Origin: a virus
Taxonomy: Duplodnaviria > Caudoviricetes
DNA: 64,000 bases
Direction: 5' to 3' (one strand)
IMG/VR virus record: IMGVR_UViG_3300045952_000124
Coordinates: 1,531 to 65,530 of that record
Position numbers and translations under genes: made by a program. Of the stretch, positions 7,037 through 54,341 are shown one piece after another (the stretch's first letter is position 1; every line of letters begins with the position of its first letter). The notes under the pieces were generated by a model. The model did no database searches, was not told the origin of the DNA, and saw only the letters and a program-made list of their open reading frames with translations.

Positions 7037-7897
7037 ATGGACAAAGGCAGCATAATCGGCGGCGACTTGACGGAGCGCATCGCCCGGCAGAGCCGCATGT
7101 ACGAAGACGGACCGCTTGCAATCGTGGAGCCTGCGCGTGTTGACACGGCGGTCGCGTATGACATGATCGCGCCGGAGTACGACGCGACGTTCTCAACGCC
7201 GCTTGCGCTTGCGGAGAACACGGTCGCGTTTGAATGGGTCAACAGGCACTACCGCGAATTGTGTGAGCTTGCGGCGGCTGCGCGACCGCAATACCCGGTG
7301 AACGTGCTTGACGTAGCCTGCGGTACTGGCCTGCTGCTTGACTACATAGACATACCGGGCAGCACGTATCAGGGGATTGACATATCGCACGGCATGCTGG
7401 CGCAGGCGCGCCGGAAGCATCCGCGCCACATGTTCTATGCGTTTGAGGCGGAGCATCTGGCGGCGCTGCCGATGCGGAGCGGCTACGCTCTGGCAGTCAG
7501 CATGTTCGGCAGTTGGTCGCACTTCGATGCGGCGCGGGTCGTTGACCAGTTGTGGCGCGTTATGCGGAGCGGCGGGCGCGTCCTGATCATGGCTATGAGC
7601 AGGCGGTACGCGCATCGCGAGAGCTACATTCTGCAGAAGAAGGGTTTGAAGGTTGATCGCAGGCTGTGGCGCTCCGACGATCTGCGGAACCTGTTTGAGC
7701 GCCGGGGCTTCGCGCAGGTGAAGATCCACGGCATGGACGGCTACGCCGACCCGCACATGGAACGTTGGGGTTGGTCGCAGCCTGCGATTGAACGATACCT
7801 GCGGGCGGAGCGGGCGACTTTGGGCCGGCTCTTACCGGACAGGTGTTTCAACCTGTGCCTTGAAGCGGTGCGCCCGTACACCGGAGTTGAGGAATGA
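7037..7897 (+). CDS. Class I SAM-dependent methyltransferase
   Basis: YDMIAPEYD, VLDVACGTG (motif I), GIDISHGMLAQAR, RVMRSGG. Confidence 0.9.
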   Translation: MDKGSIIGGDLTERIARQSRMYEDGPLAIVEPARVDTAVAYDMIAPEYDATFSTPLALAENTVAFEWVNRHYRELCELAAAARPQYPVNVLDVACGTGLLLDYIDIPGSTYQGIDISHGMLAQARRKHPRHMFYAFEAEHLAALPMRSGYALAVSMFGSWSHFDAARVVDQLWRVMRSGGRVLIMAMSRRYAHRESYILQKKGLKVDRRLWRSDDLRNLFERRGFAQVKIHGMDGYADPHMERWGWSQPAIERYLRAERATLGRLLPDRCFNLCLEAVRPYTGVEE

Positions 7898-9114
7898 GCG
7901 CCGCCGCAGGTCGCGCCGGGACCGGGGCAGGCTCCGGCACTACGGTCAAAGGCATGTCGCACGGCTCCGGGTCGTACCAACGCCGGGGCAACCTGACGAC
8001 GAACGTGTACGAAGAAGCGCTCTCCCGGCTAGTAGGACTGTACGCTGCAGGGGAGCGCGTGGTCGTAGCGTTCTCGGCGGGCAAGGATTCGGGCGTGTGC
8101 CTTGAGCTGTGCATAGAAGCCGCCCGGATAACCGGACGCCTGCCCGTTGACGTAGTAATGCGCGATGAGGAGATAATGTTTCCCGGCACGTTTGAGTACG
8201 CGGAGCGTGTGGCGAACCGACCGGAAGTAAACTTCAAGTGGCTAGTCGCGCACCAACCGATCATAAATTGCTTCAACCGGGCGGAGCCGTACTTCTGGGC
8301 GTTTGACCCGCTCCTGCCGCCCGATAAATGGGTCCGCACTCCGCCGCCGTTCGCTGAGGAAATGGGCGTTATGCACATTGAGACAATGGTGCATCCTGAC
8401 AGGTTCCCGATTGAGAGCGGGCAGACTTTGTTCTCGGTCGTAGGGCTGCGCGTGCAGGAGAGCCGGAACCGCCTGTACTCTATATTTTCCTCACGCGGAC
8501 ACCTGACGAAGCCCAACGCTTACGGCGTGCGGAATTGCCGCCCGATCTACGATTGGAAGCACGGCGACGTTTGGAAAGCAATCCACGAAAAGGGGTGGGA
8601 CTACAACCGGGCGTACGATGTGATGCTCCGCTTCGGAGTGAAGCAGTACGCCATGCGAATAGGACCGCCGACCTTGAACCCTCTCGGTGCGCGCATCTTG
8701 AAGCCTGCGGCGTCCGCTTGGCCCCGCTGGTTCGACAAGGTATGCGACAGGTTGCCGGGCGTGCGTCAGGTGGCGCTGTTCGGCTTGCGCGTCGTGCAGC
8801 CGGACAGGAGACAGGGCGAACACTGGCAGCAAACGTTCCAACGCGAATGTATTGACAACGCGCCCGGCTGGATAGCGGAGCGGGCAGTCGCTTACTCCAA
8901 CGCTATCCTAAAAGCGCACTCAAAGCACAGCACCGGACCACTGCCGGAGAAGATACCCTGCAGGATACACAAAGGCAACATCGGCAGTTGGAGGGCGCTG
9001 ACGCACGCCCTGTACAACGGCGATCCGTTCGCCCTGCGGACCGACCTGCCCGTCATAGAGCCGGAGTTCTTCCGGCAGGGAGCCGGAACGTGGGGCGGCA
9101 AGCCGACCTTTTAG
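7894..9114 (+). CDS. PAPS-reductase-family PP-loop protein (IbrA/DUF3440-like, DndC/SspD superfamily)
   Basis: VVVAFSAGKDSGV PP-loop, VVGLRVQESRNR, PIYDWKHGDVW, YNRAYD. Confidence 0.85.
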   Translation: MSAAAGRAGTGAGSGTTVKGMSHGSGSYQRRGNLTTNVYEEALSRLVGLYAAGERVVVAFSAGKDSGVCLELCIEAARITGRLPVDVVMRDEEIMFPGTFEYAERVANRPEVNFKWLVAHQPIINCFNRAEPYFWAFDPLLPPDKWVRTPPPFAEEMGVMHIETMVHPDRFPIESGQTLFSVVGLRVQESRNRLYSIFSSRGHLTKPNAYGVRNCRPIYDWKHGDVWKAIHEKGWDYNRAYDVMLRFGVKQYAMRIGPPTLNPLGARILKPAASAWPRWFDKVCDRLPGVRQVALFGLRVVQPDRRQGEHWQQTFQRECIDNAPGWIAERAVAYSNAILKAHSKHSTGPLPEKIPCRIHKGNIGSWRALTHALYNGDPFALRTDLPVIEPEFFRQGAGTWGGKPTF

Positions 9115-9124
9115 GTCGCGGAGT

Positions 9125-9144
9125 ATTGTTGTCATGACAACAAT
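9125..9144. promoter_or_regulatory. Perfect 20-bp palindrome, operator-like
   Basis: ATTGTTGTCATGACAACAAT equals its own reverse complement. Confidence 0.6.
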
Positions 9145-9172
9145 CGCTAGCAAAGATGTTCTAATTCACCCG

Positions 9173-9310
9173 GCAATAACGCTCCGCAGAGCCGCCGCAG
9201 GAAAAGCCCTGAAACGCTCTGAGAGCCATTCAGCCGCGTCAATACCGCGAATGAGTACACTTATAGTCATGCTGCTATTCTGACGATTTCGTGCGTGATA
9301 TTAGAACATG
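9173..9310 (+). repeat. Dispersed ~110-140 bp element, copy A
   Basis: CTGAGAGCCATTCAGCCGCGTCAA ... TATTCTGACGATTTCGTGC..GATATTAG shared with 33933-34040(-), 46125-46233 and (partly) 53472-53617. Confidence 0.9.
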
Positions 9311-9380
9311 AGTGTCGCAAACGCGACAGGGCGAAGTGAGGGCGGCGGAGCGGTGAGGGAACAGTTGTTCTAACGTCTAC

Positions 9381-10250
9381 ATGGGGGGGATGAGCGACAT
9401 GGCGGATTTAGTAGTGACGCAGGCGGACTTAGCGCAAGTGTATCAGGGGCTATACCGACCGGGCAACAAGAGGATCGCGGTAGACGGCTACACGGTACTT
9501 GACGGGCTTGACCTGACATTACCAAGCCTGTTCCCTGCGGCATGGGCGGGAGAGCTTGCGGCGGCGGCTGCGCTGCGCGGCAGGAAGGTCGAGAAGAAGG
9601 GGCGCGGACCGGGCAGTTTGGAGGGCGACGAAACGGCGGGCTTGGACTACCGGGTATTGACAATGAGCGGCATAAAGGACGCCTGCCCGTGGCTGTACAT
9701 ACTGTACCAATCGCCGCTCCTGCGGGCGGTCGTAGCGCACGAAGTTGGGGAGCCTGTTGACATAGCGCAGGACGAATGGGCGTTGAACGTCAACCTGCTA
9801 TTAGGCGGCGGCGGGCGGTACGAATGGCACGTTGACGGGCAACCGTACACGCTCCTGCTATACCCGGAGACGTTCTCGCATGAGGAAGGCGGCGCGCTCC
9901 TGTTGGCTCCGGGCATCAACCCGGACGGCACGACGCGGCAGTTGGCGGACTATACGCACAGGTACGCGCAGAAGAAGATCGGCGGGCGGGCGGAGCGCAT
10001 AGACCACTACCCCAATTGGGTGCAGACGGTGCGACCTGTCGCCGGGCGCTGCGTGATCTTCGATGGGAGCAGGATACCGCACGCGGTTGAACCCGTGTTC
10101 GTTGAGCGGAGCCGGGTGAGCGTGCCTATGGTGTACCTGCCCGCCACAGCCGCAGCAGCCGCCGCAGCCGCCGCAGGTCGCGACGATACGCTCTCGGGCT
10201 ATCTGTACGCAGAGCAGGAGCAGGAAGCGGAGCCGGAAGGGGACGCATGA
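9381..10250 (+). CDS. 2OG-Fe(II) oxygenase (HxD...H, hydroxylase type; resembles the BesD/HalD-like clade)
   Basis: YEWHVD, EGGALLL, FDGSRIPHAVEPV, RVSVPMVY jelly-roll motifs. Confidence 0.8.
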   Translation: MGGMSDMADLVVTQADLAQVYQGLYRPGNKRIAVDGYTVLDGLDLTLPSLFPAAWAGELAAAAALRGRKVEKKGRGPGSLEGDETAGLDYRVLTMSGIKDACPWLYILYQSPLLRAVVAHEVGEPVDIAQDEWALNVNLLLGGGGRYEWHVDGQPYTLLLYPETFSHEEGGALLLAPGINPDGTTRQLADYTHRYAQKKIGGRAERIDHYPNWVQTVRPVAGRCVIFDGSRIPHAVEPVFVERSRVSVPMVYLPATAAAAAAAAAGRDDTLSGYLYAEQEQEAEPEGDA

Positions 10251-11083
10251 TACAGGGCAGTTTGGCGCCCGTGCGAATATCGGTCGCGGTGACGCACCAC
10301 CCGGCGCGGGCGCACTGGATAGAGGGCGTAGTCAGTCGCTTCTCGGACGCGGAGCGGCGCGTGTATCCGGTCGTATATGAGGACACGGATAGCCGGGGCT
10401 TGTGGCACATAGCGCGGCAGGCTTGGCTAGGCTACGACCCGCAGGCTGACTATCACATCGTCACAGAGGACGACGTGCTAGCCTGCTCCGGCTTCGTCGG
10501 CATGGCTATTGAGGCGCTTACGGCGTTGACGGCGGCACGGGGCGAGACGCTGCCTGCCTGCTTCTACTGCCCACGCGGAGCGGTCGCGGAAGCGCAGGCA
10601 CGCGGGCATAGCTGGCTTTTGATTGACGACGGCTTTTGGGGGCAAGCTCAGGTATTGCCGACGCGGATGATTGAAGGGATGATTGAATGGGTAGACCGGG
10701 TATGGTTGCCGGGCATAAAGAACCGGGGCGACGCCCGCCCGTGCATGTTTATCATGGAGCAGGGCATGCCCGTGCATGTCAGCGTGCCGTCGCTGGTCGA
10801 GCATGCGGGCTTTGACGCATCGCTAATGGGACACGCGGGCAGGATGGGGTCGCACATTCGCCGGGCGCATCGGCTGATCGGGAAGGGGGAGCGCCCGGAT
10901 TGGGAAGCAGGGCTGCGACCGGGCGAAGTCCTGTACAGGCAATCGGCTTCACTGCGAAGCTACACCGAGAAGTACCGCACGTCGCTTCGCCCGGAGTACG
11001 TGGCATGGGTAGAAGCGGGCAGGGAGGGACTAACTTATGACAACTACCTCACGCAGCACGTCGCCCAAAGCGCCCAATCCTAA
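10247..11083 (+). CDS. GT-A fold glycosyltransferase (GT25-like)
   Basis: ISVAVTHHPAR N-terminus, HIVTEDDV acidic motif, PSLVEH...SLMGH. Confidence 0.7.
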   Translation: MIQGSLAPVRISVAVTHHPARAHWIEGVVSRFSDAERRVYPVVYEDTDSRGLWHIARQAWLGYDPQADYHIVTEDDVLACSGFVGMAIEALTALTAARGETLPACFYCPRGAVAEAQARGHSWLLIDDGFWGQAQVLPTRMIEGMIEWVDRVWLPGIKNRGDARPCMFIMEQGMPVHVSVPSLVEHAGFDASLMGHAGRMGSHIRRAHRLIGKGERPDWEAGLRPGEVLYRQSASLRSYTEKYRTSLRPEYVAWVEAGREGLTYDNYLTQHVAQSAQS

Positions 11084-11864
11084 GCACCTGTACGGCGACG
11101 CTGGCGACCGATACCCGGTTGAGGTTGGCGACGTGTGGCAGATCGGCAAGCACATCCTAGCCTGCGGCGACCTTGAGATGGGCGCGGGCGTTGAGTTCCT
11201 TGCGACGTACGTGCGCGGCGGCAGACCGGACGTGAGCTTCGTTGACCCGCCGTGGAACGCGGGCAACGCGAGAAGCTTCCGCACGAAGGCAGGCGTCGGC
11301 AGGGCAGTCAACTTCTACCGCCTGATAAGCAAAGTATTGGAGACGCTTGCGAAGTCGCGGCGCGACGTGTTCATAGAGATGGGCGTCTCGGAGTGCGACA
11401 ATGTGCGGGCGCGGCTTGAAGAATACGGGGCGCGCCTGCTTGACACATGGGACATAACGTACTACCGCAAGAACCCGTGTCGGCTCCTGTGGGGCACGTT
11501 CACGGGGCAGGCATACCCGCGCCTGTTGGACTGCAACCGACTGGACGACGAAGTAGCCACGCCGAAAGTAATCGCCGCCGCCGCAGGCAGGGGTGATATA
11601 GTCTTTGACCCGTGCATGGGCAGGGGGTTGTCGGCGGTATCGGCGCTCCGGGCAGGGGCGACGGCGGCAGGGCTTGAGTTGAACCCGCGACGGCTAGCGG
11701 TTACTATTGACAAGCTTGCCTCATTAGGGGCAGGGGCGGAGCGCGGGCAGGAGCCGCGCCGGATCGCCGTCCTCTCCTGCATGACAGGGGCGGCAGAAGC
11801 AACCGAAGCAGACAAGGAGCATCCCACCAATGGCAACCCGCACGCAGACGCAGAAGAAGACTAA
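11037..11864 (+). CDS. DNA amino-methyltransferase-like protein (beta arrangement)
   Basis: VEVGDVWQIGKHILACGD, FVDPPWN (motif IV) followed by VFDPCMGRG (motif I) and GLELNP. Confidence 0.8.
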   Translation: MTTTSRSTSPKAPNPKHLYGDAGDRYPVEVGDVWQIGKHILACGDLEMGAGVEFLATYVRGGRPDVSFVDPPWNAGNARSFRTKAGVGRAVNFYRLISKVLETLAKSRRDVFIEMGVSECDNVRARLEEYGARLLDTWDITYYRKNPCRLLWGTFTGQAYPRLLDCNRLDDEVATPKVIAAAAGRGDIVFDPCMGRGLSAVSALRAGATAAGLELNPRRLAVTIDKLASLGAGAERGQEPRRIAVLSCMTGAAEATEADKEHPTNGNPHADAEED

Positions 11865-12747
11865 AGGCAAGGCAGAGGTAGAGCGCAGGTTCGCGAAGCT
11901 GGAGCGCTTGAACGTCATATACGTGCCGATTGACAGCATCAGGTACAACGGCTACAACCCGAACAGGCAGTCAGATCACGACTTTGACCTGCTCTGCAAG
12001 AGCATGGAGGAAGACGGGTTCACGCAGCCGATACTGGTAAACGACGGCAGCACGGCTCCGCAGCACTTGAACGAAATAGTTGACGGAGAACACCGTCACA
12101 GGGCGGCGCGGGTCTTAGGCTACGAAGAAGTGCCAATCGTGTACGTGCCGTTCACTGCGGAGCAGATGCGTATCTCAACGCTCCGGCACAACCGGGCGCG
12201 GGGCAGTGAGGACATGGAGCTATCCGCCGAAGTCCTGCGCGACCTGCAGCGACTAGGCGCGCTTGACATGGCTCAGGACAGCCTCATGATGGACGACATT
12301 GAGATGCAGCACCTATTGGACGACATAGGAGCCGCCGAAGCGCTGGCAAGTGAGGAGTTCTCAACAGCGTGGGAGCCTACTTCGGCGCAGGACACGACGC
12401 TTGACGGCAAGATGAAGCCGGAACACGGCGTCCGGCAAGACAGCATGACGCCGGAAGCAGCCGACGCGATCCGCGAGAACGAACGGCGCATACAGGAAGC
12501 AAAGACCGACGAAGAACGCGCCCTTGCCCGGCGCGACGCCGACCTGTTCCGTATAACGCTCTTGTTCGCCGGAGAGCAAGCCCGCATCGTCCGCGCCGTT
12601 CTCGGCTCCGAAGCCGCGCCCGCCCTGCTCCGGCTCTGCACGGCGGAGTTGGCACGGCTTGAAGCCGAAGCCGCATCCCTGCAGGCGGAGCGCGACGGCT
12701 TGACCATAGAGCAGGCGCAGGAAGAAGCGGCAACCGCCGCCGCGTAG
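11830..12747 (+). CDS. ParB/Srx-domain protein (IbrB-like)
   Basis: NGYNPN, SMEEDGFTQPILV, IVDGEHRHRAA, STLRHNRARG. Confidence 0.9.
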   Translation: MATRTQTQKKTKGKAEVERRFAKLERLNVIYVPIDSIRYNGYNPNRQSDHDFDLLCKSMEEDGFTQPILVNDGSTAPQHLNEIVDGEHRHRAARVLGYEEVPIVYVPFTAEQMRISTLRHNRARGSEDMELSAEVLRDLQRLGALDMAQDSLMMDDIEMQHLLDDIGAAEALASEEFSTAWEPTSAQDTTLDGKMKPEHGVRQDSMTPEAADAIRENERRIQEAKTDEERALARRDADLFRITLLFAGEQARIVRAVLGSEAAPALLRLCTAELARLEAEAASLQAERDGLTIEQAQEEAATAAA

Positions 12748-12860: not shown

Positions 12861-13835
12861 ATGGCTACAAGCCCGCAAAATGGCTCTCAATCGCAGGAGC
12901 CTCAACCGCCGCCGACACAAGCGACAGGCTCCGACATTGTGCCAGCGCAACAAAGGTTCGTAGCGAAGCCGGGGCCAGCGCCGGAAGCAGGGACGAAGGT
13001 CTTTGTAGGCGACGCATGGGAGATGCAGGAGTGGGAAACGGAAGCATCGTTCCGGGCGTTCAAGACGTTCCTAGACCTGCCGCGTGGCAAAAGGTCGCTA
13101 GCGGAAGCGTACCGCGTCGCATACGCGAAAGATGCGGGAACCGAGGCAGCGCCCTTCTTGCGGGATTGGGCGCGGCAGAACCTATGGTTTGACCGGGCGC
13201 GGGCGTGGGACAATCACCTGCTGGCGGCGGAGCGCGAAGCGGAAGTTGAAGCGGTCAAGAAGTCGGCTGATAGCAGGGTCGGCGCGTACCGGGCGATGCT
13301 TGGAGCCGGGCTACAAATAATCCGGGCATCGAAGCTTGACGACAAACTGACCGAGTGGCAAGCGCGTCGGTTGCTGCCGACCGCAATCTCTGCGATAAAC
13401 GCCGCCGCCGCAGGCTTGCGGGTAGAAATGGGGGAGCCTGAAAGCATCCTGCAGGCGCGCATCGTCGGAGCGGACGGCACGTCACCCGTTGGCATGAACG
13501 TGCATCACACCGGGATGCCGGAGCAGGGCGACGTAAACGCGCTGATAATGAACATCGGCGCGGTCCTCAACAATGCGACGCCGGAAGAACGGGAGGGCAT
13601 TATCGCGTCGTACCGCACGATTATGGCGGCAAGCACAGCCATGTCGGAGCGGCTATTCCAAGCGGCGAACGGGCTTGACGACCTGTCCGACGCGGGCGAC
13701 TTTGACGGCATGTTGGAGAGCATCGGCTTGCCGACGCCGCAGGAGTTCTCTCCGGCGATGCAGGAGCCGACCCAAGCGCCCGAAGCGGGCGAAGTTACAC
13801 AGGAACAAGGAGGTTACACACATGGCGAACAGTAA
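12861..13835 (+). CDS. terS: Terminase small subunit (probable)
   Basis: WEMQEWETEASFRAFKTFLDL..RSLAEAY...W...W.DRARAWD pattern seen in phage TerS; lies upstream of TerL. Confidence 0.6.
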   Translation: MATSPQNGSQSQEPQPPPTQATGSDIVPAQQRFVAKPGPAPEAGTKVFVGDAWEMQEWETEASFRAFKTFLDLPRGKRSLAEAYRVAYAKDAGTEAAPFLRDWARQNLWFDRARAWDNHLLAAEREAEVEAVKKSADSRVGAYRAMLGAGLQIIRASKLDDKLTEWQARRLLPTAISAINAAAAGLRVEMGEPESILQARIVGADGTSPVGMNVHHTGMPEQGDVNALIMNIGAVLNNATPEEREGIIASYRTIMAASTAMSERLFQAANGLDDLSDAGDFDGMLESIGLPTPQEFSPAMQEPTQAPEAGEVTQEQGGYTHGEQ

Positions 13836-14596: not shown

Positions 14597-15280
14597 ATGG
14601 GTAATTACCTGTACACGCAGGACGGGCGCAAGCTTGACCCGGAAGATGTAGCGCGGGCGACTGCGGACCGGGGCGACATGCTGCTGACGACGGCGGACCT
14701 GCCCGCAGGCAGCATACAGCCGGGCGAGACATTCGATTTGGAGCGGGCGTATCGCAACTTCCGGGGCGAGATAGTGAGGCGCAACACGGCGTACGCTCTG
14801 CGAGACGACCGCATGACGAAGCCGGACGCGCAAGCCCTGCTAATCCACATACCGGACGTGTGGGAGCCGGGGCGGGTAGAAGGTTGGTTCAATGACTGCC
14901 TGTTCGCGGACGAAGTAGCCCGGAGCGAAGCGGCTCCAAAGATGTACGTGCCGGGCGACGTGCGGGTTGAGATTACATACCCGGCGCTTCGCGACGTTAC
15001 TGAGGCTGTGCAGGTCGTGTACGTCGCGTGGAAGGGCAAGCTTCGTTGGCTGCATCTTGCAAGCGCGGTCGCGGAGCTAACTATGGACGCCTTGTCGGAC
15101 ATGGACGAAGCCGCCGCCGCAGGGATGAAGGCGGGCGCGTTCTACCTGTGGGTGTTCGCGACGCCTTTCCCGGTCGCCAATAACCCTGTGCCGGGCGACT
15201 TGCGTGGCGGCTTTATACCAACGTCGGCGCTTCGGGGCAGTCTTGCCGACCTGCAGGAAGCGCGACCGCGTTGGCTATAA
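14597..15280 (+). CDS. Hypothetical protein
   Basis: ATG 14597 after GGGAG; in frame with track ORF. Confidence 0.6.
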   Translation: MGNYLYTQDGRKLDPEDVARATADRGDMLLTTADLPAGSIQPGETFDLERAYRNFRGEIVRRNTAYALRDDRMTKPDAQALLIHIPDVWEPGRVEGWFNDCLFADEVARSEAAPKMYVPGDVRVEITYPALRDVTEAVQVVYVAWKGKLRWLHLASAVAELTMDALSDMDEAAAAGMKAGAFYLWVFATPFPVANNPVPGDLRGGFIPTSALRGSLADLQEARPRWL

Positions 15281-17115
15281 ACCGGGTTGACATAAGAGGC
15301 GCAGCCGGAGCAGGAGCCGATGATGCGTACGCCCGGCTGCGTGAGATTATAGCGCTGCAGGAGCGGCGGCGGCAGGCTATGGAGTGGCACTCCTGCTTTG
15401 AGTGGGCGCGTCGCATCGGCGTGCGGACCGAGAGCGGCGAAGTCCTGCACAACCGCGATATGCCGTGGCGCGAACAGCTTTGGCAGGAGACGCACGGGCG
15501 CATCGTTATGGAGAAGCCGACGCAGATCGGCGCGACCACGTTTGAGTACGTGTGGGCGATGCACCGGGCGGCGGTCCGGGGCAATACCGTGATCTACACG
15601 ATGCCAACAGGCTCCGACGTAACGGACTTTATAAAGGGCCGGCTCAACAAAGTAATCGAGTTTACGCCGGAGTTGGCGGCTATGGTCGGCAGAGGTACGC
15701 GGGTCCGCGACAAGATAGACGGCTCCGGCATGAAGTCGTTCGGCAGAGGCATGATCTACTTCCGTGGCACGTTCACAGAACGGGCGGCTATCTCGGTCCC
15801 GGCGCACGCCCGCGTGCATGACGAAGTAGACTTCTCGGTCGCGGAAGTATTGGAGATGTACAGGCGCAGGTTGTCCGCTCTCCCGGCGTCGCAGCATCAG
15901 GAGCTATTCGCAAGCACTCCGACCGTTGAAGGCTTCGGCATAGACAAGTTGCTGCAGGAGAGCGACTATAAGGAATGGCTTGTCAAGTGTCCTAGTTGCG
16001 GCAAGTGGGAGAACGGGTCGCTGGATTACTGGACGCACACGGACGGCGTGCTTCTATTCCTTCAATGCCGCTTCTGCAAACAGAAGCTTGACCCGCGACA
16101 CGGCGCTTGGGTCGCCCGATACCCGGAGCGGAGCAAGAACATTCTGCGGAGCCGGGGCTACAAGATAGTGCGAATGATGGCAGTCCTACCCGATGCGCGG
16201 GGGGAGGAGCTGCTAACCGACCTGCACACGGCGCGGGCTAACGCGCAATTTCAACGGCACTTCTACAACATGGACTTGGGCGTTACATCGTCGGAAGGCA
16301 CGACCGCGCCGACTATGGAGGGCGTGCTAGCTGCCTGCTACTCCGGCTTCCCACATTACGGCATGACGCAAATCCCGGTCGCAGAGACAGGCACGGGGCC
16401 ATACTACGCAGGTGTAGACGTAGGGAGCGAATTGAACGTTTGGGTAGCGCGCTGCGACCCGTACAAAGACGGGAAGCGCATGCGGTTGGTGTACGCGGAC
16501 AGGCTATCCGACCCGTCGCGTGGTAGCGGGGCTTGGGGCGAGATCCAACAGAGCGGCAAGCCGGGGCTAGCGGGCATCATGCAGCGCTTCGGGATACGCA
16601 AGCTAGTGATAGACGGGATGCCGGAGAGCGCATTGTCGCACGACTTCGCGCAGAGGTTCCCCGGCAGGGTGCTTGTGTGCTACTATAGAGAAAACCAACG
16701 GGCGGAAGTTAGCGCATCGTCGGATGTGATACGGCGGGCGACGGGCATTGAAGCAGGCGCAACGGATAACGCGGAGCGGTTTGACGTGAACGTAGACAGG
16801 ACCGAAAGTCTTGACCGCACGATAGGCGAGATATTAGGCGGCGGCTGGATGTTTCCGGGCGAACCGCCCGTGCTGCATCGCGAAGTCGAAGAAAGCATAA
16901 TGCACCTTACGAACCTGCTCCGCAAGCCGGAAGACCAGAAGCGCAACGGCTTGATTGTAGGCACGGTGTACAGATGGAGCCACAGAGGACCGGACCACTA
17001 CGCGCACGCCGCGAATTACTGCCGGATAGCCCGCGATGAGGACCGCCGCCTGTCCGCAATCAACCCGCCGTCAACCGCTCCGATAGGGATAACGGGCGTC
17101 AACTTCGCACGGTAG
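15271..17115 (+). CDS. terL: Terminase large subunit (lambda GpA-like)
   Basis: MEKPTQIGATT (Walker A variant), VHDEVD (Walker B), ASTPT, CPSC..CRFC Zn ribbon, AGVDVG, VIDGMP, DHYAHA nuclease motifs. Confidence 0.9.
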   Translation: MAINRVDIRGAAGAGADDAYARLREIIALQERRRQAMEWHSCFEWARRIGVRTESGEVLHNRDMPWREQLWQETHGRIVMEKPTQIGATTFEYVWAMHRAAVRGNTVIYTMPTGSDVTDFIKGRLNKVIEFTPELAAMVGRGTRVRDKIDGSGMKSFGRGMIYFRGTFTERAAISVPAHARVHDEVDFSVAEVLEMYRRRLSALPASQHQELFASTPTVEGFGIDKLLQESDYKEWLVKCPSCGKWENGSLDYWTHTDGVLLFLQCRFCKQKLDPRHGAWVARYPERSKNILRSRGYKIVRMMAVLPDARGEELLTDLHTARANAQFQRHFYNMDLGVTSSEGTTAPTMEGVLAACYSGFPHYGMTQIPVAETGTGPYYAGVDVGSELNVWVARCDPYKDGKRMRLVYADRLSDPSRGSGAWGEIQQSGKPGLAGIMQRFGIRKLVIDGMPESALSHDFAQRFPGRVLVCYYRENQRAEVSASSDVIRRATGIEAGATDNAERFDVNVDRTESLDRTIGEILGGGWMFPGEPPVLHREVEESIMHLTNLLRKPEDQKRNGLIVGTVYRWSHRGPDHYAHAANYCRIARDEDRRLSAINPPSTAPIGITGVNFAR

Positions 17116-33932: not shown

Positions 33933-34040
33933 TAGCAACCATGTGCTAATATCAGGCACGAAATCGTCAGAATATGGGCATGACTATAAACGTACTCTGC
34001 AGAGGTATTGACGCGGCTGAATGGCTCTCAGCGCGTCTCA
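33933..34040 (-). repeat. Dispersed element copy B (inverted), inside 13-bp inverted repeats
   Basis: Reverse complement TGAGACGCGCTGAGAGCCATTCAGCCGCGTCAATACC...TATTCTGACGATTTCGTGCCTGATATTAGCAC; flanked by TGTTCTAATTTTC (33874-33886) and GAAAATTAGAACA (34103-34115). Confidence 0.9.
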
Positions 34041-46124: not shown

Positions 46125-46233
46125 CTGAGACGCGCTGAGAGCCATTCAGCCGCGTCAAGCGGTGGCAGAGCTATGTTTATAGCCATGCCCCTATTCTGAC
46201 GATTTCACGCACGATTTTAGCTACCATGTTCTA
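46125..46233 (+). repeat. Dispersed element copy C
   Basis: CTGAGACGCGCTGAGAGCCATTCAGCCGCGTCAA...CTATTCTGACGATTTC..GATTTTAG. Confidence 0.9.
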
Positions 46234-53356: not shown

Positions 53357-53478
53357 TGCGATTGCGAACCTTCCTGCGGCTTGCCGGAGTAGCGTTGGTG
53401 CTGCTCCGCTTGCCGTTTCTTTGGTTCTTCTGCGGCTTCGCGGGTGGCCTGTTATTCGCCCTTTTGCTGCTGCAATAG
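53356..53478 (+). CDS. 40-aa hydrophobic membrane peptide (absent from the ORF track)
   Basis: TGATG coupling; MRLRTFLRLAGVALVLLRLPFLWFFCGFAGGLLFALLLLQ. Confidence 0.5.
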   Translation: MRLRTFLRLAGVALVLLRLPFLWFFCGFAGGLLFALLLLQ

Positions 53479-53617
53479 CGCTCCGCAGAGCCGCCGCAGG
53501 ACACGCCCTGAGACGCGCTGAGATGACACAGGACGCATCAATACCCCTCTGTGGCTATGTATGCAGCCGTGCCGCTATTCTGACGATTTTGTGCGTGATT
53601 TTAGAACGTGGTTGCTA
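53472..53617 (+). repeat. Dispersed element copy D (hybrid of the two subtypes)
   Basis: Shares GCAATA.CGCTCCGCAGAGCCGCCGCAGG and GCTATTCTGACGATTT.GTGCGTGAT.TTAGAAC with copy A, and CTGAGATGACACAGG with the short copies. Confidence 0.9.
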
Positions 53618-53801: not shown

Positions 53802-54341
53802 ATGGACAGTCCTGAGCGGACAATCGAATTGACGAACGGCAAGCAGGTCGCTATTGACCCTGCGGATTACGACTTGGTATCGGGGCTGCGCTGGTACGAA
53901 GTGCGCGGGTATGCTGCGGCGAGAGTACGGGGCGGCGGAGTAGTGCTGATGCACGTCTACATAATGACGGGCGGCGACTACAATGGGGCGCGGCAAGAGT
54001 CGGTCGTAGATCACAAGGACGGCGACAGGCTCCGCAATACCCGCGACAATCTGCGTTGGGCGACATACAGGCAGAACGGCTACAACAAAGGCAAGGCGTC
54101 CGGCAAGTCTAGCGCGTACAAGGGCGTGAGCAAGTGTTCGGACCGCGACAGGTGGCTTGCCTGCGTACACGTCGGCAATAAGAGCATAACGCTTGGGCGC
54201 TTCGCTACTGAGCTAGAAGCGGCGGCGGCGTACAATGAGGCGGCTTGCGCCCTGTTCGGCAAGTGGGCGCGGTTGAACAACCTGCGGGCGTCGGAGCCGT
54301 GCTTGGTTCCCGCAGATGAGATTGACGACCTGCCGTACTAA
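53802..54341 (+). CDS. HNH-AP2 homing endonuclease
   Basis: MHVYIM, VVDHKDGDRLRNTRDNLR (HNH) plus SSAYKGVS..W.A....LGRFATELEAAAAYNEAA..LFG (AP2). Confidence 0.9.
   Translation: MDSPERTIELTNGKQVAIDPADYDLVSGLRWYEVRGYAAARVRGGGVVLMHVYIMTGGDYNGARQESVVDHKDGDRLRNTRDNLRWATYRQNGYNKGKASGKSSAYKGVSKCSDRDRWLACVHVGNKSITLGRFATELEAAAAYNEAACALFGKWARLNNLRASEPCLVPADEIDDLPY

Follow-up and report, generated by a model that had tools for sequence, protein, structure and literature searches.

A cassette of six enzyme genes lies directly upstream of the terminase genes of an uncultured soil phage, in a 65,530-bp IMG/VR virus record with direct terminal repeats (IMGVR_UViG_3300045952_000124). We analyzed bases 1531–65530 of this record, a stretch of 64,000 nucleotides referred to here as the window, in which the cassette spans positions 7037–12747. 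The genes, designated A to F, are predicted to encode two methyltransferases (A and E), a PP-loop enzyme (B), a 2-oxoglutarate (2OG)-Fe(II) oxygenase (C), a glycosyltransferase (GT; D) and a ParB/Srx protein (F). Together with the terminase genes they are arranged as follows.

7037–7897, + strand: A, class I S-adenosylmethionine-dependent methyltransferase (UbiE/Methyltransf_11-like), 286 aa; Methyltransf_11, 5e-13
7894–9114, + strand: B, IbrA-like PP-loop ATP-pyrophosphatase, 406 aa; PAPS_reduct, 9e-11; phrog_2302, 3e-52
9115–9380, no strand: non-coding gap splitting the cassette, 266 nt, with a palindrome and a repeat copy
9381–10250, + strand: C, HalD/BesD-like 2OG-Fe(II) oxygenase, 289 aa; 2OG-FeII_Oxy_3, 8e-8
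10247–11083, + strand: D, GT-A fold glycosyltransferase, 278 aa; phrog_854 'glucosyltransferase', 2e-9
11037–11864, + strand: E, divergent beta-class amino-methyltransferase, 275 aa; phrog_498, 2e-8; PADLOC MTase_II, 2e-8
11830–12747, + strand: F, IbrB-like ParB/Srx protein, 305 aa; ParB_N, 7e-12; phrog_2159, 1e-30
12861–13835, + strand: small terminase subunit (terS); phrog_6299, 7e-10
15271–17115, + strand: large terminase subunit (terL); GpA_ATPase, 1e-21; phrog_675, 1e-73

A preliminary description of this DNA had proposed six open reading frames (ORFs) in this region. All six are present where it put them, and matches to Pfam, PHROGs and PADLOC place each in the superfamily then assigned. 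The motifs it named are likewise present, and the translations or alignments read VLDVACGTG in A, SAGKDS in B, HxD..H in C, EDD in D, DPPW in E and DGEHRHRA in F. It had also called the genes coupled, which holds for A/B and C/D (overlaps of 4 nt each), D/E (47 nt) and E/F (35 nt) but not for the cassette as a whole, as the 266-nt gap parts A-B from C-F. Placement directly upstream of terS and terL is borne out: terS starts 113 nt past F, followed by two unknown ORFs and then terL.

B scores 42.5 bits against PAPS_reduct (PF01507; cut-off 22.5), and its PP-loop, SFSAGKDS, is kept across 30 aligned sequences. H342, H345 and C356 are invariant, and C319 and C359 nearly so. The true start of the protein is probably residue 21, where the database version begins. 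Homologues are numerous (n = 816), the best being ∼60% identical. The nearest ESM Atlas clusters (score 0.98) combine PAPS_reduct with DUF3440 and are mostly viral; 67–98% of their members bear DUF3440, although B itself gave no match to PF11922 (DUF3440) at E ≤ 0.01. One DUF3440-bearing cluster aligns to residues 29–399 of B with a TM score of 0.83. A PDB sequence search with B returned nothing significant. Relatives in 206 cultured-phage records are at most 31% identical to B and are annotated as IbrA, PAPS reductase-like or DUF3440 protein, and the clade at 52–62% identity comes from metagenomes and metagenome-assembled genomes (MAGs) only. MAGs that carry this close clade belong to Dehalococcoidia, Chthonomonadaceae, Kapaibacteria/Ignavibacteria, Planctomycetota, Hyphomicrobiales, Gemmatimonadetes and Spirochaetia. 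In genome contigs (L178–L195), conservation of the close clade across at least seven phyla (53–62% identity) is unusually high for a phage-borne gene.

F scores 45.7 bits against ParB_N (PF02195; cut-off 26.3) and, besides phrog_2159, matches the ParB part of phrog_498 (8e-24). A predicted N-terminal nucleoside triphosphate (NTP)-binding domain, in which the nucleotide-binding box GxxRxxA reads GEHRHRA, is joined to a conserved C-terminal part. YNPN, FTQP, DGEHR and TLRHNRARG are invariant, with DG-H-R kept in 18 of 18 sequences. More distant IbrB-like ParB genes, in loci L055, L059, L063, L069 and L076, carry a conserved N-terminal extension of ∼130–150 aa (HLExCYCVSGKG...).

To compare neighborhoods, we assembled 145 loci anchored on B (the best 80 of 302 viral loci found, plus 65 from species genomes) and scored their ORFs with profiles from in-house alignments. 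In the window, 2.7 kb separate B from F, which is downstream and equally on the + strand. Of the 80 viral loci, 78 have an F-type gene on the strand of B and no more than 3 kb away, and in the two misses the contig ends right after B. F is also present in 61 of the 65 species-genome loci. Identity to the window proteins is 52–62% for B and 47–58% for F, as against 23–43% for A, C, D and E and at most 26% for terL; terS gave no match. Because B and F co-occur, are conserved at high identity and stand beside unrelated terminases, they are, as judged by sequence, an IbrA/IbrB-type pair that is mobile as one unit among unrelated phages. The pairing suggested in the preliminary description thus gains support from PHROGs, from the PAPS_reduct + DUF3440 Atlas neighbors, from cultured-phage annotations and from the near-constant presence of F.

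What lies between B and F varies. In relatives this slot is empty or holds E, D, D+E or D+C; in the phage studied here it holds C+D+E. Gene orders include A-B-F, A-B-E-F, A-B-D-F (L194), A-B-E-D-F (L098) and B-D-E-F-F (L190), and those bearing C are B-D-C-F-terS (L010), E-D-C (L013) and B-D-C (L014). Among the 11 closest viral loci, E is found in four, D in one and C in none. All six genes together occur in none of the 231 other loci examined, so the cassette appears, on sequence, to be the most elaborate variant seen of the phage IbrA/IbrB-type module. Three things are new: a HalD/BesD-like hydroxylase among the slot genes, the combination of all six genes, and evidence that the GT does not depend on the hydroxylase. 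The IbrA/IbrB pairing is already known as annotation.

The two methyltransferases differ in how they relate to this module. A has UbiE-like NCBIfam matches, far under cut-offs. An A-like gene adjoins B, on its upstream side, in 10 of the 11 closest viral loci, and one adjoins B in 15 of the 65 genome loci; within the close clade, A is by this measure the regular upstream partner of B. E reaches 18.9 bits against N6_N4_Mtase, the Pfam cut-off being 26.7. Its motifs come in the beta-class order, DPPW near residue 70 and then an FxGxG-type DPCMGRG near residue 190. E matches the methyltransferase half of phrog_498, and F matches the ParB half. In a D+E fusion (P0039), the match to E spans 210 aa at 30% identity (1e-16).

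The AlphaFold2 (AF2) model of D (pLDDT 93.6) has a GT-A fold with an acidic DxD-type motif, E74-D75-D76, in which D75 is near-invariant. D76, P138, D162, H186 and a PSLVEH motif are invariant. The family counts 1184 representatives at E ≤ 1e-3, and no Pfam model covers it; searches of PDB gave nothing significant with the single sequence and nothing useful with the family profile. In a fold search, 95 PDB representatives had Z ≥ 8, and the top matches listed are GT-A enzymes. The best solved folds are POMGnT1 (Z 14.4) and GnT-I (13.6), with TarP at 11.1 and the GT25 enzyme ColGalT1 at 9.9 (rank 35). Glyco_transf_25 (PF01755) matched none of 63 D-family members at E ≤ 0.1. On its predicted structure, then, D resembles GT13 rather than GT25, and the earlier 'GT25-like' label does not hold.

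Does D act on a hydroxyl group made by C, as the preliminary description proposed by analogy to base J? The neighborhoods argue otherwise. We scanned 80 viral loci anchored on D, using a narrower alignment since the wider one was too diverse. B was found in 12 of these and an F-type ParB in 16; conversely, D was found in 8 of the 145 B-anchored loci. C was seen in none of the 145 B-anchored or 80 D-anchored loci, and four D-bearing IbrA/IbrB loci without C hold no Pfam oxygenase either. Because D occurs in IbrA/IbrB cassettes that lack C, its acceptor would seem unable, in general, to come from C, and the order of hydroxylation and then glycosylation is not supported by these comparisons.

D also occurs as a fusion protein, joined to ParB_N (P0035, P0093), to an E-type DPPW methyltransferase (P0039) or to an Lsr2 DNA-binding domain (P0140, L154), fusions that appear to link it to DNA-directed partners. 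In some loci the gene is repeated in tandem, with four copies at L126:4742–7675 and three at L149:6923–10327, and in other family members the fusion partner is an FkbM or Methyltransf_24 methyltransferase or a DXD-type glycosyltransferase. These arrays and fusions point to multi-sugar glycans made by phages.

In C, the residues of the H150-x-D152...H234 motif and R245 are all invariant in 14 sequences, as is a motif of its own, GRGPGSLExEETAGLDY. In this superfamily HxD iron ligands mark hydroxylases and HxG/A halogenases; C is of the HxD type (H150, D152). Homologues are few (n = 13, ∼40% identical), and the Pfam HalD score, 19.1 bits, falls below the 26-bit gathering cut-off. With the AF2 model of C (pLDDT 77), Foldseek placed HalB, HalD, HalA and BesD first, all of the top 22 matches listed being Hal/BesD proteins (E about 1e-12). 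The VIA fold search aligned HalB over 240 of 246 residues (Z 21.4, rmsd 3.4, ∼15% identity), ahead of PasI, PolD and prolyl hydroxylases (Z ≤ 16.3). NgTET1 came at rank 25 (Z 12.8), a shared jelly-roll fold that leaves a DNA substrate possible. Atlas neighbors are HalD clusters, with TM scores up to 0.85. C gave no match to the TET/JBP family (PF12851) at E ≤ 0.01, and the C-family profile hit an NgTET chain only at E 0.8; its matches in PDB were weak, to prolyl hydroxylases (best, Pseudomonas putida P4H, 9e-4) and BesD. The earlier view that the oxygenase is HalD/BesD-like rather than TET/JBP-like is therefore upheld by the VIA scores (21.4 versus 12.8), with Foldseek and ESM Atlas in agreement.

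Relatives of C are rare. None was found in 50,697 GenBank phage records or, by pattern scan, in 185,579 species genomes. A PDB sequence search gave nothing significant, a BFVD fold search only generic phage 2OG oxygenases, and single-sequence scans of viral contigs with C and with D nothing usable. Seven distinct loci hold relatives of C. In four of them (L010, the same contig as L015; L011; L013; L014) D lies immediately upstream of C, and B, E or F flanks the two. The co-occurrence of oxygenase and GT with IbrAB-like genes anticipated in the preliminary description is thus seen in four of the seven but not in L009 or L016, where the C-like genes are unaccompanied by B, D or F; the contig of L012 is too short to judge. 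In one close relative the B-to-ParB slot is taken by a 183-aa ORF (L019:2857–3408) that matches no Pfam family and shows an H-x-D ... H pattern; it may be a different, small oxygenase.

To assess the position of the module, we counted by hand 47 B-anchored loci, each with at least 2.5 kb of sequence past the cassette that included one or more ORFs of at least 150 aa. In 29 of these, a terminase or portal gene is found no farther than ∼4 kb downstream, and the terL genes belong to many different families. The remaining loci have helicase, recombination or replication genes as neighbors. Placement on the terminase side is thus recurrent, yet this is also a usual site for accessory genes. Of the earlier proposal that the pathway is 'possibly packaging-coupled', the placement stands; a mechanistic coupling to packaging is not shown by any of these data.

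The gap between B and C holds a perfect 20-bp palindrome (9125–9144), 11 nt past the B stop codon and with no T-run behind it, and one of four genomic copies of a ∼100-nt repeat. The copies, at 9173–9310 (+), 33940–34040 (–), 46125–46220 (+) and 53472–53610 (+), are all intergenic and 78–86% identical. The inverted copy follows the tape-measure gene, and after the copies at 46 kb and 53 kb comes a second common element with TATAAT. The repeat may act as a promoter or other regulatory site of the phage. An Rfam scan of the window, repeat and gap included, found no family; a promoter/terminator scan found no such-like site within the gap, and the predicted RNA fold of the gap is not unusual (z-score –1.57). 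Right after B, where the window has the repeat-bearing gap, six of the 11 closest relatives carry a short conserved ORF of ∼95 aa (L021:10104–10397, L022:10125–10415, L023:10168–10464, L024:10098–10460, L025:1631–1903 and L027:10143–10457). Its product has the pattern W-x-W-A-K...APHWY...YKYW, matches no Pfam family and is absent from the window; it may be an additional component of the cassette. Separately, a 36-nt GC-rich stretch within the C gene (9536–9571) is 92% identical to a stretch of the terminal repeat (G000:C1:71–106, 65474–65509), probably a chance likeness of low-complexity sequence.

The wider genome looks like that of a siphovirus. Every long gene of the window is on the + strand, and recognizable families include terminase, portal, major head, tape-measure, Dit, tail genes and an amidase; most remaining genes have no family. 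An HNH endonuclease with an AP2 domain is encoded at 53802–54341, just after one of the repeat copies. The stretch, in whole or in part, is present in three soil-metagenome runs, always as contigs, and no RNA run is among the holders listed. When compared with GenBank phages, the DNA of the whole cassette shows similarity confined to one 105-nt stretch.

What might the cassette do? The reading we prefer, to which we give about an even chance, is that it carries out post-replicative hypermodification of phage DNA before packaging. We infer DNA as the target because E and F correspond to the two halves of phrog_498, because there is precedent for a ParB-activated dioxygenase, and because the neighborhoods of such dioxygenases list the same partners as the D fusions. 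In that precedent, a phage ParB-like protein is needed for the activity of a DNA thymine dioxygenase on double-stranded DNA (PMC13229309). The same source counts GTs in 31%, ParBs in 27% and terminases in 19% of such pathways, and describes neighborhoods rich in GTs, ParBs, terminases, N6/N4 and O-methyltransferases, APH and GNAT. Phage GT-A enzymes are described as glycosylating DNA (10.1101/2023.12.21.572611), and phage ParB folds as commonly fused to N6_N4 and other methyltransferases (PMC12704722). Genes for a pre-replicative route (a thymidylate-synthase-like hydroxymethylase, a kinase, TET/JBP) were not found among the window ORFs scanned.

In this scheme, F would serve as a nucleotide-dependent clamp on DNA that places or activates the enzymes. 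B would use ATP to adenylate the oxygen of a base carbonyl or of a backbone phosphate in the DNA and so enable attachment of a nucleophile. A would methylate the adduct or the base, and D would add a sugar. C, more likely a tailoring enzyme, would hydroxylate an amino-acid-like or sugar part of the adduct rather than make the acceptor for D, and E would lay down an N6-adenine or N4-cytosine methyl mark. In a more specific version, which we regard as improbable, B is a DNA-directed counterpart of tRNA lysidine synthase: with F as clamp, it would ligate a Lys/Orn-like amino acid to an adenylated base carbonyl, after which C would hydroxylate that amino acid, D would O-glycosylate the adduct and A would methylate it. 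If so, the pathway would yield a nucleobase bearing a glycosylated hydroxy-amino acid, a kind of DNA hypermodification so far undescribed, and the simpler A-B-F cassettes of at least seven bacterial phyla would make its unglycosylated form.

Several observations weigh against DNA hypermodification. To our knowledge, no chemistry or target has been shown for any IbrA/IbrB pair, and our literature search, mostly at the level of titles and abstracts, found no paper characterizing the biochemistry of the pair. The substrates of the relatives of C, whether these are related by sequence or by fold, are amino acids, protein prolines or sugars rather than nucleobases, and C-like genes can occur apart from B, D and F, as in L009 and L016. 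E falls under the Pfam cut-off for DNA methylases, and the 266-nt gap may be a border between two transcription units. As for D, 68 of the 80 D-anchored loci are without B. We scanned 137 proteins from 61 non-redundant D loci without B (immediate neighbors and long D ORFs; hand counts): neighbors and fusion partners are mainly further GTs (∼16), sugar-type O-methyltransferases of the FkbM (9), TylF (4) and Methyltransf_24 (6) families and polysaccharide pyruvyl transferases (5), with a few matches to terminase, connector, protease, amidase, ParB_N or Lsr2 and none to TET_JBP, 2OG oxygenase or thymidylate synthase. The sole cultured-phage relative of D, Pas35 of Actinoplanes phage phiAsp2, likewise occurs without B, C or F; it belongs to a GT-methyltransferase-GT cluster (Pas33–35) behind the tail genes.

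These last points fit the main rival, which we consider unlikely though less so than the others: a composite locus in which A-B-F, and E with F, are directed at DNA, and C+D are an unrelated cargo pair in an accessory hot spot that modifies a protein (virion, ParB or terminase, in the style of hydroxyproline or hydroxylysine O-glycosylation) or a glycan. The glycan-building neighbors of D, a few of them beside terminase, connector, protease or amidase genes, and the phiAsp2 cluster would be expected on these terms. The best solved matches of D (POMGnT1, GnT-I and also ppGalNAc-T2) are enzymes of protein glycans, the best match of the C profile is a prolyl hydroxylase, and LH3/ColGalT1 and mimivirus lysyl hydroxylase are among the fold matches. 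Work by Freeman and colleagues in 2023 is said to have given direct proof of capsid glycosylation in mycobacteriophages. One genome announcement takes two phage GTs as a sign that the capsid is glycosylated (PMC11256854). Yet C-D sits between B and F, or beside E, in all four informative relatives, and the fusion partners of D include ParB_N, Lsr2 and an E-type methyltransferase. No collagen-like G-X-Y run of at least five repeats was found in the chosen + strand ORFs of the window, and the HalD/BesD relatives of C use free amino acids, not proteins. Free amino acids as substrates are also in keeping with another possibility, rather unlikely in our view, that the module acts on the host, on signaling or on nucleotide pools, as an anti-defense or regulatory device that co-activates prophage genes, for example, or as a ParB/Srx kinase plus adenylyltransferase working on a small molecule. 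Such a co-activating role of IbrA/IbrB was reportedly described by Sandt and colleagues in 2002. F weakly matches SerK, a serine kinase of the ParB/Srx fold (2e-4), and the PAPS_reduct family includes small-molecule adenylyltransferases such as CysD, to which B has weak matches. ParB folds are described as binding varied NTPs, with roles beyond DNA segregation (PMC12704722). On the other hand, one half of a DNA methyltransferase fusion is matched by E and the other by F, D is fused elsewhere to DNA-binding domains, and a place in front of the late or packaging genes, as in the 29 of 47 loci, gives a timing that fits progeny DNA.

Two further explanations start from the superfamily of B. That B/F is the phage counterpart of DndC/DndB (or of SspD or BrxP) and catalyzes DNA phosphorothioation, the other enzymes being extras, seems to us more doubtful than a regulatory role. 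B does share its superfamily with DndC, SspD and BrxP, and PADLOC returned BrxP (2e-8) and DndC (8e-4). DndB carries a DGQHR motif, which DGEHR of F resembles. DndB is described as a ParB-superfamily protein (PMC12839542, PMC12704722). However, the BrxP match is restricted to the PP-loop stretch (residues 54–120), and the DndC matches reach 15–16 bits over ∼60 residues (E 8e-4 and 1.7e-3). No cysteine desulfurase, DndD/E or SspA-C was found among the window ORFs (65 scanned with PHROGs, 40 with Pfam and the six cassette proteins with PADLOC), and the regular partner in the clade is methyltransferase A rather than a sulfur donor. The faint DndC match and the missing partners speak against phosphorothioation as raised in the preliminary description. 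Least probable is that B is cysH, an auxiliary sulfur-metabolism gene for PAPS reductase, as the Pfam family name would suggest. Phage cysH, including a DUF3440-bearing clade, has been counted as the most abundant organosulfur auxiliary gene (10.1101/2021.01.05.425418). Nevertheless, B scores 22 bits against the NCBIfam PAPS-reductase equivalog NF002537 (cut-off 154) and falls far under the cut-offs of CysD models too, and a profile of 30 B relatives searched against PDB reached only CysD (E 0.022) and PAPS reductase (E 0.32). CysH has a C-terminal catalytic cysteine motif; B ends ...GTWGGKPTF, with no cysteine near the terminus, and has an obligate ParB partner. As far as sequence goes, neither phosphorothioation nor sulfur metabolism is favored.

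Few phage enzyme sets that still lack an explanation are as common as the IbrA/IbrB-type pair, with 816 homologues of B, 302 viral loci and 206 cultured-phage records. The close B clade keeps 52–62% identity in phages and in MAGs of at least seven phyla while the surrounding genes change. In viromics, such genes are counted as sulfur-metabolism 'cysH' auxiliary genes (10.1101/2021.01.05.425418), a labeling that would be wrong if the pair modifies DNA. Activation of a DNA dioxygenase by ParB, as described in PMC13229309, makes the idea of ParB as a general loader of DNA-modifying enzymes testable. Since none of the 231 other loci holds all six genes, the cassette described here, the richest version seen, would make core chemistry and tailoring steps accessible in one system, where dropout experiments could show both together.

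With base J (JBP + JGT), T-even glucosyl-hydroxymethylcytosine and the O-glycosylation of hydroxylysine or hydroxyproline (LH3/ColGalT1, mimivirus L230, Skp1), the cassette has in common an oxygenase gene beside a GT gene. As to differences, the comparative data argue that D does not depend on C, C is not TET/JBP-like and D is nearer GT13 than GT25; a collagen-like target was not found in the chosen + strand window ORFs. The free-amino-acid (Lys/Orn) halogenases and hydroxylases BesD, HalA, HalB and HalD share their whole-chain fold with C, whose triad is the HxD of the hydroxylase members. C differs in its ∼15% identity, its sub-cut-off HalD score, its phage GT and ParB neighbors and its own GRGPGSLExEETAGLDY motif. 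DndB/DndC, SspD and BrxP of BREX type 4 resemble B+F in having a PAPS-reductase-superfamily PP-loop ATPase with or near a ParB-superfamily protein on DNA, but the matches are faint, sulfur-donor, DndD/E and Ssp partners were not seen in the window, and here a methyltransferase is the regular partner.

Phage ParB-methyltransferase fusions (phrog_498; ParB-CTPase + N6_N4_Mtase, described by Kaljevic et al. 2025, PMC12704722) have counterparts in F and E, which match the two halves of phrog_498; here, however, the two parts are encoded separately, the methyltransferase gene preceding the ParB gene in reversal of the fusion order, and E is divergent. The ParB-dependent thymine dioxygenase/GT pathways described by O'Toole et al. 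2026 (PMC13229309) and Pyle et al. (10.1101/2023.12.21.572611) also bring together a ParB, a 2OG-Fe(II) oxygenase, a GT-A enzyme and N6/N4 and other methyltransferases near the terminase. Their oxygenase is of the TET/JBP type, whereas C is HalD/BesD-like, with no PF12851 match. The conserved core here is instead the PP-loop enzyme, and the main texts of these two papers do not name PAPS reductase. A further parallel is with the IbrA/IbrB pairs themselves, as in the Escherichia coli ECOR-9 island, Streptococcus phage CHPC1148, Mycobacterium phages Gaia and Phaedrus, Flavobacterium phage 1H and Escherichia phage PhiR5_2. Like B+F, these combine a PAPS_reduct PP-loop enzyme with a ParB-N protein, often beside a terminase; the C-terminal domain of the enzyme, DUF3440-like in these pairs, is probably so in B. 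The cultured-phage versions are at most 31% identical to B, and in the cassette described here four more enzymes are attached to the pair.

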